Under the pieces are notes generated by a model. The model saw only the letters and a list, made by a program, of their open reading frames with translations. It had not been told where the DNA came from and made no database searches. DNA of 64,000 nt, from assembly GCA_032249235.1 (NCBI GenBank), contig JAVVGF010000004.1, forward strand, positions 1-64,000, written 5' to 3'. The position numbers and the translations under genes were made by a program. This DNA comes from Thermoproteota archaeon (lineage in GTDB: Archaea; Thermoproteota; Thermoprotei; Gearchaeales; Gearchaeaceae). Below, one piece after another: positions 1 to 52,919 of the stretch (position 1 is its first letter; every line of letters starts with the position of its first letter).

Positions 1-308
1 CCCGCTTTCACGGCCCGTACCCGTCTTAGGCATGGTGGGCCGTTACCCCACCATCTACCTGATAGGCCGTGCTCACATCCTCAGGCGGCGAAGAGCAGTC
101 GGCCCTTCGCCTTTAGGTAAGGAGCTATTCCAAGACTCCTTACCTATCCGGGATTATCCTCCGTTTCCAGAGGTTGTCCCGGACCTGAGGGTAGTTTGAG
201 CACGTTTTACTGAGCCGTACGCCGCGTGGCAGCTGATAACCCCTGCCACGCCGACTTGCATGGCTACCCACCCCGATAGCGGTCAGGTCCGGCAGGATCA
301 ACCGGGGT
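1..308 (-). rRNA. rrs: 16S rRNA, 5' portion (continues beyond window start)
   Basis: Minus strand begins ACCCCGGTTGATCCTGCCGGACC...GCCATGCAAGTCG...GGCTCAGTAA, the archaeal 16S 5' consensus; GC-rich against an AT-rich background. Confidence 0.97.
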
Positions 309-531: not shown

Positions 532-606
532 GGGCCGGTGGCTTAGCCTGGTTATAGCGTCCGGCTGATAACCGGAAGGTCATGGGTTCAAATCCCATCC
601 GGCCCA
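532..606 (+). tRNA. tRNA-Ile(GAT)
   Basis: GGGCCGG/CCGGCCC acceptor stem, TCCGG-CTGATAA-CCGGA anticodon arm, GGTTCAAATCC T arm; no encoded CCA. Confidence 0.96.
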
Positions 607-1673: not shown

Positions 1674-1990
1674 GGTGCAAGGTGTATTTGTAAGCCTCTT
1701 TTTGTTTCAACGCCATTCATCTAGTCGGTCGGAGAGCTCATAGGGGGTGCTCATTGCTCGCCCCGACCTTTGTCTTTGCGGGGGATCATGTTTCACCGAG
1801 CAATGGCTATACTCAAGCTAGCTACTTCGTTGCCGAAGTAGCATCGCCATCATAGACACCCAGCCATGCTCGTGCCATTTCTGTGGTCTACCAGGCCTTT
1901 CGGCCTATGCCTTACGGCATCGCAAACCCCCTAGCGACAGAGGACTTTCCTCAGGCTTGCGCCCGAGAGGCGTTCAATACACCTTGCACC
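1674..1990 (-). ncRNA. rnpB: RNase P RNA (type A-like)
   Basis: GAGGAAAGUCCUCU and AAACAAAAAGAGGCUUA P4 halves; 15-bp terminal P1 (GGUGCAAGGUGUAUU/AAUACACCUUGCACC); P6 UAGGGGG/CCCCCUA; GNRA-capped P8 and P9; followed by a U6 tract. Confidence 0.95.
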
Positions 1991-31995: not shown

Positions 31996-32033
31996 GGATA
32001 TTCTTTAAAAATAAGGGTTATTAAAGCTTGACA

Positions 32034-32107
32034 TGGGCCGGCCCGGATTTGAACCGGGGACCTTTACCGCGTCAGGGTAACATCCTTCCAGGCTAGACGA
32101 CCGGCCC
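32034..32107 (-). tRNA. tRNA-Val(GAC)
   Basis: GGGCCGG/CCGGCCC acceptor stem; TTACC-CTGACGC-GGTAA anticodon arm. Confidence 0.94.
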
Positions 32108-32117
32108 ATAGAAAACA

Positions 32118-32189
32118 TGGACCGGGAGGGATTCGAACCCTCGACCTTCCGCACGCCAAGCGGACATTCTACCACTGAACTACCGGCCC
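32118..32189 (-). tRNA. tRNA-Ala(GGC)
   Basis: G3-U70 pair in GGGCCGG/CCGGTCC; TCCGC-TTGGCGT-GCGGA anticodon arm. Confidence 0.95.
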
Positions 32190-32211
32190 ACCCAAATAAT
32201 TTAGAATGATC

Positions 32212-51146: not shown

Positions 51147-52442
51147 ATGGCGGAGAAAAAACCACATTTGAATTTGATAGTGGCAGGACATGTAGATCAT
51201 GGAAAATCAACTACTACAGGCCACATACTAACTCTTTTAGGTGTAGTGGATAAAAAGAGACTTGCAGAATTAGAAGAAGAAGCGAAGAAAAGAGGAAAAG
51301 AATTCGCGAAATATGCTTGGATCTTAGATACATATAAAGAAGAAAGGGAAAGAGATATGACGATAGATCTTACTTTCTTGAAATTCGAAACCAAAAAATA
51401 TTTCTTCACAATAATCGATGCTCCAGGTCATAGAGATTTCGTTAAAAACATGGTAACAGGTGCTTCGCAAGCTGATGCTGCATTATTAGTCGTTTCAGCA
51501 AAGAAGGGAGAATTTGAAGCTGGAATAGGAGCAACAGGACAAACAAGGGAACACGCTTTCTTATTGAGGACAATGGGAGTAAATCAAATAATCGTAGCTA
51601 TTAATAAAATGGACGATCCTTCAGTGAATTGGAGCAAAGAAAGATTTGAAGAAGTAAGGAAAGGCATTCTTGATCTTTTAAGACAAGTAGGTTATCCAGT
51701 TGAAAAAATTAGAGTAATTCCAATTTCAGCATGGTATGGTGATAATTTAGTAGAAAGAAGTAGCAATACTCCATGGTATAATGGACCTACTTTGGCTGAA
51801 GCATTCGATGAATTAGTTGTTCCTCCTAGACCTGTAGATAAACCTTTAAGGATACCTGTTGAAGCTGTATATTCAATAACTGGAGTAGGAACTGTTCCTG
51901 TCGGAAAAGTAGAAACAGGCAGACTAAGAGTAGGAGATGTTGTTGTAGTCATGCCCAGTGGTAAGAAAGGCGAAGTTAGATCTATAGAGACCCATCATAC
52001 ACCAATACAAGAAGCCATTCCTGGAGATAATATAGGTTTCAACGTTAAAGGTCTAGAAAAAACAGATGTAAAAAGAGGAGATGTTTTCGGCCCTGTCGAT
52101 AATCCTCCTACAGTTGCTAGTGCAGTTATCGCTAGAATATTCGTAATCTATCATCCTACATCAATAGCAGTAGGCTATACTCCTGTTATGCATATTCACA
52201 CAGCTACAGGGCCTGTTAAATTTGAAGAAATTCAAAAGAAATTAGATCCAAGAACAGGCTCAACTATAGAGGAGAATCCTAAGTTCATTAAACAAGGAGA
52301 TGCTGCAATAGTTAAATTAAGACCAATAAAGCCTATGATAATCGAAAAATATTCAGATTTTCCAGGTCTTGGTAGATTTGCTATTAGAGATATGGGTAGG
52401 ACTATTGCTGCAGGAGTTGTTCTAGACGTAATTAAAGCATAA
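51147..52442 (+). CDS. tuf: translation elongation factor EF-1 alpha
   Basis: GHVDHGKST, DAPGHRDF, NKMD, GRFAIRDMG. Confidence 0.98.
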   Translation: MAEKKPHLNLIVAGHVDHGKSTTTGHILTLLGVVDKKRLAELEEEAKKRGKEFAKYAWILDTYKEERERDMTIDLTFLKFETKKYFFTIIDAPGHRDFVKNMVTGASQADAALLVVSAKKGEFEAGIGATGQTREHAFLLRTMGVNQIIVAINKMDDPSVNWSKERFEEVRKGILDLLRQVGYPVEKIRVIPISAWYGDNLVERSSNTPWYNGPTLAEAFDELVVPPRPVDKPLRIPVEAVYSITGVGTVPVGKVETGRLRVGDVVVVMPSGKKGEVRSIETHHTPIQEAIPGDNIGFNVKGLEKTDVKRGDVFGPVDNPPTVASAVIARIFVIYHPTSIAVGYTPVMHIHTATGPVKFEEIQKKLDPRTGSTIEENPKFIKQGDAAIVKLRPIKPMIIEKYSDFPGLGRFAIRDMGRTIAAGVVLDVIKA

Positions 52443-52750
52443 TGCCAAGAGTAGCGCGGATATATCTCTCTGCAACAAACATTAGCGATCTAGAAAGTGT
52501 CGTCAATGAAATAAAAACAATTGCTGATTCACAAAATGCAAGATTAGCAGGTCCTGTTCCATTGCCTACAAAAAGATTAAGAGTTGTAACCAGGAAAACT
52601 CCTTGCGGCGATGGAACGCATACTTTTGATAGATGGGAACTAAGAATACATAAAAGAATAATAGATGTCATTGCTTCAGAAAACGTGATGAGACAGTTAG
52701 CAAGAATAAAAGTACCACCATCCGTTAGGATTTCTATCAACATTAGATAA
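52442..52750 (+). CDS. rps10: 30S ribosomal protein S10
   Basis: GPVPLPT, RKTPCG.G..TFD.WE..IHKR. Confidence 0.98.
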   Translation: MPRVARIYLSATNISDLESVVNEIKTIADSQNARLAGPVPLPTKRLRVVTRKTPCGDGTHTFDRWELRIHKRIIDVIASENVMRQLARIKVPPSVRISINIR

Positions 52751-52794
52751 AACTTAATTATACCTTCTTTTCTTATAGTAATTAGCCGGGAAAA

Positions 52795-52890
52795 GCCGGG
52801 ATACGAAAGCCCGAAAGCCTAGCGGACAAGGCGCAGGCCTTGAGAGCCTGTGGGCGTAAGCCCGCGTGGGTTCGAATCCCACTCCCGGCG
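52795..52890 (+). tRNA. tRNA-Ser(TGA) with a 13-nt intron at 52803-52815 (position 8/9)
   Basis: GCCGGGA/TCCCGGC acceptor stem, CAGGC-CTTGAGA-GCCTG anticodon arm, long variable arm, G73; removing ACGAAAGCCCGAA restores U8-A9 and the GCCT/AGGC D stem. Confidence 0.9.
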
Positions 52891-52919
52891 TTTTTAAATC
52901 TGTTTATTTTCTTTGTTTT
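52891..52919 (+). terminator. oligo-T terminator region after tRNA-Ser
   Basis: TTTTT...TTTATTTTCTTTGTTTT. Confidence 0.5.

Follow-up and report, generated by a model that had tools for sequence, protein, structure and literature searches.

An interrupted tRNA-Ser(UGA) gene preceded by a copy of its acceptor strand

The sequence analysed was a window of 64,000 nt from a Thermoproteota archaeon (contig JAVVGF010000004.1 of assembly GCA_032249235.1, positions 1-64,000, forward strand), in which the gene for tRNA-Ser(UGA) was found to be interrupted by a 13-nt intron between nucleotides 8 and 9 of the tRNA and to be preceded, at a distance of 3 nt (AAA), by a second copy of the 5' strand of its own acceptor stem, referred to here as the leader copy. 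A first-pass annotation of the window had proposed both the 8/9 insert and the GCCGGGA duplicate, and every coordinate that it gave for them holds (Table 1). The host genome (G000) is 1.43 Mb in size and 91% complete, with 45 tRNA genes called by ARAGORN.

The intron and the adjoining exon nucleotides can be arranged as a bulge-helix-bulge (BHB) splice motif of the form hBHBh', in which the central helix H is made by CGGG (52797-52800) and CCCG (52810-52813), h by the pairs G52795-C52818 and C52796-G52817, and h' by a single intron pair closing a GAAA loop. The bulges are AU|A and AA|A, so that the window contains the two 3-nt bulges, on opposite strands and flanking a 4-bp helix, by which EndA-type motifs are judged. 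The motif had been annotated as strict; it is present base for base, but its strictness is one of geometry only, h having 2 bp and h' 1 bp, and the 24-nt piece on its own forming just H. It is equally well described as a relaxed bulge-helix-loop. Because H and h are built from acceptor nucleotides 1-6, the splice motif and the 7-bp acceptor stem are mutually exclusive.

In-silico joining of the exons at the predicted cuts gave, for each of the 12 orthologues described below, a sequence that ARAGORN called as a canonical tRNA-Ser(tga), its start at the second copy and its acceptor stem of 7 bp, in agreement with the earlier proposal that cleavage after the second nucleotide of each bulge restores a canonical tRNA; CCA is not encoded at the 3' end. 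On the unspliced DNA of the window, both ARAGORN and Rfam chose a start at 52809 with a mismatched acceptor, and the Rfam score of 41.7 bits is the lowest among the seven tRNAs of the window (57-72 for the other six). Unspliced orthologues were given wrong starts, no call (G001; 1/12) or a call of tRNA-His (G005, G007 and G008; 3/12) by ARAGORN. Because standard finders mis-start, miss or mis-call the gene, the genomes of the order will seem to be without a proper tRNA-Ser(UGA).

The gene is the sole Ser(UGA) gene in G000, since the other Ser(tga) and Ser(gga) calls made by the intron option of ARAGORN are Leu(UAG) and Phe(GAA) genes with introns, and as a single-copy gene it is therefore needed. 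The two mislabelled genes, Leu(UAG) at C5:9502-9602(-), called as Ser(tga), and Phe(GAA) at C1:130874-130958(+), called as Ser(gga), were reassigned by their anticodon loops.

Table 1. Positions of the features discussed in the text (window coordinates unless a genome is named)
Feature	Position	Strand	Remarks
tRNA-Ser(UGA) gene	52795..52890	+	Class-II tRNA, interrupted between nt 8 and 9
Exon 1, tRNA nt 1-8 (GCCGGGAU)	52795..52802	+	Acceptor 5' strand GCCGGGA 52795-52801, U8 52802; nt 1-2 in h, nt 3-6 as 5' strand of H, A7 and U8 in 5' bulge; predicted cut after 52802
Intron at 8/9, 13 nt (ACGAAAGCCCGAA)	52803..52815	+	Sequence and orthologue comparison; C52804-G52809 (h') closes GAAA; CCCG 52810-52813 as 3' strand of H; AA 52814-52815 in 3' bulge
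Exon 2, tRNA nt 9-73	52816..52890	+	ARAGORN, Rfam; A9 52816, D arm, anticodon arm (UGA), long variable arm, T arm, TCCCGGC 52883-52889, G73 52890
Leader copy of 5' acceptor strand, GCCGGGA	52785..52791	+	Complementary 7/7 to 52883-52889
Spacer AAA	52792..52794	+	Predicted RNase P cut after 52794
T run, n = 5	52891..52895	+	Adjoins G73
TATA/B recognition element (BRE)-like element AAAACTTAATTATA	52749..52762	+	Overlaps end of S10 gene; from sequence
Ribosomal protein S10 gene	52442..52750	+	Pfam PF00338, E 4.9e-25; directly upstream of the tRNA
EF-1alpha gene	51147-52442		Precedes S10; EF-Tu domains (Pfam)
G013 genes with a 3/4 intron (L062-L064)	C1:572391-572465, 78548-78622, 1804304-1804378

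Integrity of the locus

The low Rfam score and the mismatched acceptor stem called on unspliced DNA could be taken as signs of an artefact, either a duplication introduced during assembly or a decaying gene. The stretch 52500/52522-52853, with the duplication and the insert, is spanned by DNA contigs from three runs. Those of X1 and X6 show 0 differences, and the four seen in X9, a run from a separate study, all lie upstream of 52724; these independent contigs carry the same duplication and insert, and the assembly duplication that the first-pass annotation had asked to see excluded is ruled out by them. Decay in turn is contradicted by the status of the gene as the only one for Ser(UGA), by its retention with compensatory changes in 12 sequences and by its canonical spliced product. 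The probability of an artefact or a pseudogene is accordingly regarded as close to negligible.

Chance placement of the leader copy was also considered. GCCGGGA occurs 24 times on the two strands of the 1.43-Mb genome, corresponding to 0.0003 occurrences expected in any 40 nt, and among the 45 ARAGORN tRNA genes of G000 only one, that for Ser(UGA), has two upstream sites complementary to its own 3' acceptor strand.

Conservation and covariation among relatives

Orthologues were first located by similarity search (60 relatives), with the matches in family f1 extending back across the leader copy, and were compared by script parsing and with a covariance model (MAFFT misaligned the leader, and the row of G011 was misaligned in the model too). 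The set consists of 12 distinct sequences, from 11 of the 12 species genomes of the order plus one metagenome variant, nine of which belong to family f1 and three to its sister family f2 (five genera, g1-g5). The S10 proteins of the 12 loci are 60-100% identical to that of the window, and 60-66% identical across the family divide.

Both the insert and the leader copy are present in all 12 sequences, from f1 and f2 alike. A pattern comprising both copies and the intron end gave matches in every genome of the order but one (11 of 12; the exception, G006, is 67% complete) and in none of the 108 other genomes of the class. A pattern from which the leader was omitted (exon 2 plus the 3' bulge) retrieved six metagenome loci and seven archaeal genome loci, as well as one bacterial chance match, and the leader copy was present at 13 of the 13; five of the six metagenome loci repeat known genomes and the other is a new close variant, none having a new acceptor sequence. 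At eight Ser(UGA) loci belonging to other families of the class, both the insert and the leader copy are absent. The same is true of the uninterrupted Ser(GGA) and Ser(GCU) genes of G000, which have the same acceptor stem and U8-A9-GCC, and in a 7-mer test none of the 44 other ARAGORN tRNA genes of this genome had a leader segment of this kind, complementary to its own 3' acceptor strand.

The leader 7-mer can form seven of seven pairs with the 3' acceptor strand in every one of the 12 sequences. Six of its positions are identical throughout, while position 7 (A throughout the nine sequences of f1, G throughout the three of f2) tracks acceptor pair 7:66 (A-U in nine, G-C in three); the check suggested by the first-pass annotation, to look for covarying leader duplicates in relatives, gave the duplicate in 12 of 12, with covariation at this one position. 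Identity in the flanks is 37% over the upstream 25 nt and 40% over the 12-nt trailer (figures for five genus representatives), and among the relatives the spacer is variable in sequence and 3-8 nt long, with introns of 12-24 nt. The helix between leader copy and 3' strand (the decoy helix) can reach 8-9 bp in genera g3, g4 and g5, where G73 has a possible partner in the base immediately 5' of the leader copy; no such partner is ever found immediately 5' of exon 1.

The f2 spacers (L043, L044 and L045: CUCCUA, ACUCCCAG) share CUCC, a sequence that could pair with GGGG in the leader copy or in exon 1. A second BHB made of leader and spacer was considered and dropped, the length of the spacer varying from 3 to 8 nt.

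As regards the splice motif, H pairs at four of four positions in 12 of 12 orthologues (script parse) and h consists of two invariant base pairs, with h' having one base pair in most sequences and seven in G011. The h' pair is Watson-Crick in all 12 and occurs in four types (A-U in five, U-A in three, G-C in two and C-G in one in the model alignment, with G-C in the misaligned G011 in addition); the C-G pair of the window is replaced by U-A in the closest relative, L051 (S10 protein 99% identical), with the GAAA loop unchanged. In the model alignment 99.7% of cells pair, compared with 92.1% after shuffling, and the covariation score is 0.195 compared with 0.054 (reached by 0 of 500 shuffles), although the ordinary tRNA arms contribute much of this and the alignment includes the misplaced G011 row.

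The base following the second copy is U in 12 of 12 sequences, whereas that following the leader copy is A in five, T in four and C in three, which identifies the second copy as the real exon. Were the upstream copy the true exon 1, the mature tRNA would start at 52785, the intron would be of 23 nt and RNase P would be unneeded, with a mature sequence identical save at position 8; the promoter-like element stands at a normal distance from 52785, and the CGGG of the leader could likewise pair with the CCCG of the intron. Position 8 would however then be A, T or C in the numbers just given instead of U, and the 5' cut must fall 2 nt after the strand facing CCCG, where only the second copy provides a 3-nt bulge followed by the covarying h'. 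Moreover, the 7-bp h' hairpin of G011 abuts the second copy only, and, as a weaker point, the RNA contig described below ends at 52794 and not at 52784. A mature 5' end at the upstream copy is therefore considered quite improbable.

The leader copy might also be a functionless by-product of the insertion which created the intron, persisting by descent. The insert and the copy arise together at the base of the order and are never found apart, and four g1 sequences have T after the leader copy, such that the whole arrangement could have come about by one insertion of 23 nt between U8 and A9; the spacing of TATA-like element and leader copy, by a noisy measure, is the usual one, which would suit an ancestral 5' end at the copy. 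Such an origin does not account for seven positions which have stayed invariant or covaried while their neighbours were randomised, with position 7 following the acceptor pair. Slippage, furthermore, readily removes one of two direct repeats 10-15 nt apart, but both are still present in all 12 sequences. With the computed folds and the f4 genes described below also taken into account, persistence of the copy by descent alone is judged unlikely.

Computed folding of the precursor

Folding was assessed by nearest-neighbour computation in two dimensions, with tertiary structure left out. Across 11 genomes the probability of helix H, P(H), was 0.05-0.91 with the leader and 0.0001-0.23 without it at 70 °C, and 0.06-0.73 and 0.0002-0.03, respectively, at 85 °C; for the window the values at 70 °C were 0.048 and 0.00013. 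Removal of the leader cuts the computed occupancy of H 4- to 700-fold, and this loss of access to the splice helix also argues against a functionless copy. The minimum-energy fold of the window precursor contains CGGG:CCCG together with pairing of the leader and the 3' acceptor strand, and the same was obtained in eight of eight precursors at both 37 and 75 °C.

The CGGG of either copy is complementary to the CCCG of the intron, and the CUCC shared by the f2 spacers could pair with GGGG; it could thus be proposed that the leader copy pairs with the intron CCCG (or, in f2, with the spacer CUCC) and regulates or delays splicing instead of enabling it. The conserved leader positions 1, 2 and 7, the covariation of position 7 with nucleotide 66 and the extension of the decoy helix to 8-9 bp through G73 would all be left unexplained by such a competitor, and in the eight minimum-energy folds the leader is paired with the 3' strand every time. 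Pairing of the leader with the intron is hence thought very improbable as its role.

A second case in tRNA-Glu and tRNA-Asp genes

In the complete genome G013, which belongs to a further family of the class (f4), three tRNA genes, for which Rfam aligned model positions 4-67 only, were observed to carry a 21-nt intron at position 3/4. Helix H of their BHB is made of leader bases -3 to -1 plus G1 (GGAG:CUCC), and the complete 5' acceptor strand, GCCCCGG, is repeated 10-11 nt upstream of G1. A leader-free pattern retrieved 20 loci with a 3/4 intron (Glu-UUC, Glu-CUC and Asp-GUC) from 11 of the 120 genomes of the class, all of them in f4 (11 of 29 genomes); over the f4 loci (L062-L064, L073-L092) the intron measures 21-23 nt and the leader copy lies 10-14 nt upstream of G1. 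These genes could alternatively be annotated with the first GCC as 'exon 1' and a 38-nt intron, in which case the leader copy would go unnoticed.

The leader 7-mer is an exact copy at 13 of the 20 loci, differs by one C-to-U change which keeps a G-U pair at five and keeps six of seven pairs at the remaining two. Of the four variant 7-mer types, three are C-to-U changes by which identity with exon 1 is given up but pairing with the 3' strand retained, a further point against a copy persisting without function; at the level of sequence, substitutions that keep pairing over identity fit what an RNA-pairing function predicts. Parsing succeeded for 17 of the 20 loci and gave 13 distinct sequences (L078, L082 and L089 were unparsed and L081 was mis-parsed), and leader 7-mer and 3' strand are paired in the 75 °C minimum-energy fold of 12 of these 13. 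Covariation is also seen in helix H in f4 (GGAG:CUCC in eight, GGGG:CCCC in three and GGGG:CUCC in one). In genes whose BHB uses acceptor nucleotides the proposed decoy is present at 12 of 12 loci for the 8/9 intron and at 20 of 20 for the 3/4 intron (18 with seven pairs and two with six).

Transcription, processing enzymes and genomic surroundings

The tRNA locus lies 34 nt past the stop codon of the S10 gene, which lies directly upstream of Ser(UGA) at all 12 intron-bearing loci and at three of eight outgroup loci. A TATA-like 8-mer begins 32 nt 5' of the leader copy, compared with a genome-wide median of 31 between TATA and the mature 5' end; this distance scan is noisy in an AT-rich genome (10th-90th percentile 17-44), and the site at 52749 scored only 2.7. 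The TATA-like element of the first-pass annotation is thus present, but the scan is too noisy to place a start site. The sequence of AAAACTTAATTATA hints, weakly, that it could possibly be the gene's own promoter, with a start site at approximately 52783-52785. Archaeal transcription terminates at oligo-T, and the run at 52891-52895 is likely to be the transcription stop.

A 1081-nt RNA contig (metatranscriptome X10) covers 52500-52794 and stops exactly at 52794 without a loose end, whereas the DNA contigs continue to 52853. As this contig runs across 52785-52794, some transcripts at least, those reading through from S10, include the leader copy. Its end coincides with the predicted RNase P site, which, coming from one contig of one run, is a weak hint of processing there.

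G000 encodes two EndA paralogues of 183 and 178 amino acids (in the regions C2:141127 and C5:39544), each with PF01974 and PF02778, a pair which by its sequence fits the two-subunit type cutting non-canonical introns, as well as an RtcB ligase (PF01139, E 5e-172). A full-length archaeal RNase P RNA gene is present in the window at 1679-1985(-).

Several other features of the RNA genes were noted. The RNase P RNA gene shares the first 2 kb of the window with the 5' end of the 16S rRNA gene at 1-308(-) and a divergent tRNA-Ile(GAU) gene at 532-606(+). Two tight tRNA pairs were seen, Ala(GGC) and Val(GAC) with 8 nt between them (window 32033-32190(-)), and His(GUG) and Ala(CGC), which abut with zero spacer in ARAGORN coordinates (G000 C5:57326-57474(+)). 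The tRNA-Leu(UAA) gene of G000 (C4:113809-113910) has an 18-nt insert in the 5' strand of the anticodon stem, at approximately 29/30, with Rfam aligning the 3' part only (18.8 bits); it is the only further non-canonical intron noticed in this genome. A tRNA-Arg(CCG) gene was not found in G000 by ARAGORN, Rfam or a T-arm signature scan and, the assembly being 91% complete, may simply be missing from it.

Discussion

It is considered probable, if by no means certain, that the splice motif is able to form because the 3' acceptor strand is held by the leader copy, with splicing and then RNase P completing maturation. Since the acceptor stem excludes the splice motif, the transcript would on this account carry a second 5' acceptor strand upstream. 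The BHB hairpin would form during transcription, and the 3' acceptor strand, made some 70 nt later, would pair with the free leader copy rather than displacing the BHB. EndA would then cut after 52802 and 52815 and RtcB would join the exons; once the intron strand had been removed, nucleotides 1-7 could reclaim the 3' strand, and cleavage by RNase P at 52794/52795 would permanently discard the decoy. The core of the first-pass annotation, that pairing of the leader copy with the 3' strand frees nucleotides 1-6, gains support from conservation, covariation, the absence of the copy from uninterrupted genes, the computed folds and the independent recurrence in f4, with an unrelated intron.

A number of observations weigh against this account. 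The 24-nt motif on its own folds only to the 4-bp helix (z -0.99), and 34 of 200 shuffles fold as well; h and h' are, for a model of this kind, too short for energy prediction. In genus g4 the minimum-energy fold is a continuous 7-bp helix which replaces the 5' bulge. The covariation of the leader amounts to a single event (f1 versus f2) among related sequences which are not independent, and, the leader being a copy of the native strand, covariation alone cannot tell pairing with the 3' strand from identity with exon 1. Even with the leader, the absolute P(H) computed for the sequence of the window is small (0.05-0.2). After in-silico splicing the decoy stem is still favoured by 1.5-2.9 kcal/mol at 70 °C, and the probability of the native stem rises only to 0.007-0.07 (0.00002-0.01 before splicing); because the two-dimensional model keeps favouring the decoy stem, return to the native stem would need tertiary stabilisation or capture by RNase P. 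The suggestion from this model that the copy hinders native folding after splicing is, equally, a point in favour of a copy that merely persists by descent. The sole RNA run, X10, consists of assembled contigs with no cover of 52795-52852 and no reported joint, from which neither the splice junction, the free intron nor the start site can be read.

Non-canonical BHB introns have been described in tRNA genes of Crenarchaeota and Thermoproteales, including an 'extreme' intron at 3/4 (Sugahara et al. 2008, as cited in the accessible text of PMC4090602), and 3/4 introns are stated there to occur in 'certain Thermoproteales'. The Ser(UGA) intron is an ordinary member of this class: as in the cases covered by the portion of PMC4090602 available, it is a short, protein-spliced intron outside 37/38, with a 4-bp helix, 3-nt bulges and short or relaxed outer helices, in a host with two-subunit EndA, and in a gene which standard finders miss or mis-call. 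It differs from the cases in that portion by its position at 8/9 and by the conserved copy of the acceptor strand in the leader. The 8/9 site and the leader copy are not mentioned in the accessible portions of PMC4090602, PMC4033280, PMC3218864, PMC4307357, PMC8450103, PMC4390854, PMC3293823 or bioRxiv 10.64898/2026.10.13.758758, in which slash positions are not text-searchable. As the copy also stands upstream of the 3/4-intron genes, the decoy may be a device of that known class which has so far gone undescribed.

In the split tRNAs of Nanoarchaeum equitans and Caldivirga maquilingensis, as far as these are treated in the available excerpts of PMC4033280 and PMC4090602, extra sequence likewise builds the structure that is the EndA substrate and is then discarded, but there the leader and trailer of two transcripts pair and form the BHB itself. 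In the Ser(UGA) gene a single transcript is involved, and the strand mimic lies outside the BHB and would occupy its competitor, the 3' acceptor strand. A split or permuted tRNA gene was also considered for the locus and rejected, the exons being collinear within 106 nt on one strand. In a known case of one intron set against another, mutually exclusive RNA folds dictate the order of processing, as is proposed for Ser(UGA); here, however, the splice motif is set against the acceptor stem, the substrate of RNase P, and a dedicated cis element would tip the balance.

A direct repeat of part of a tRNA gene adjoining that gene is also a feature of viral and plasmid attachment (att) sites, such as the 44-bp SSV1 att site (PMC3293823, accessible excerpt). 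Those described in that excerpt are DNA scars tens of base pairs in length, placed on either side of a kilobase-sized, integrase-carrying element, whereas the repeat at Ser(UGA) is of 7-8 nt, with copies 3-8 nt apart, lies within the transcript and covaries with the acceptor stem. The att repeat of an integrative element was rejected as an explanation, there being no element between copies of a 7-8-nt repeat which are 3-8 nt apart.

A general rule is put forward tentatively, with slightly less than even confidence, namely that any BHB intron which borrows acceptor nucleotides needs a leader-encoded mimic of the 5' acceptor strand, and that this fixes splicing before 5' trimming. Were this so, the mimic would park the 3' strand, keep the splice motif open and hide the RNase P site until the intron had been spliced out, and it would have arisen at least twice, with the 8/9 intron in Ser(UGA) of this order and with the 3/4 introns in Glu and Asp genes of f4. 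To our knowledge, no clear account has so far been available of how a splice motif becomes exposed in a tRNA precursor when the acceptor stem competing with it is, in a hyperthermophile, very stable. The conserved, covarying leader element offers a concrete and testable answer, in which one RNA rearrangement would link EndA and RNase P, and the rule, if true, would explain how introns have colonised the acceptor region of tRNA genes.

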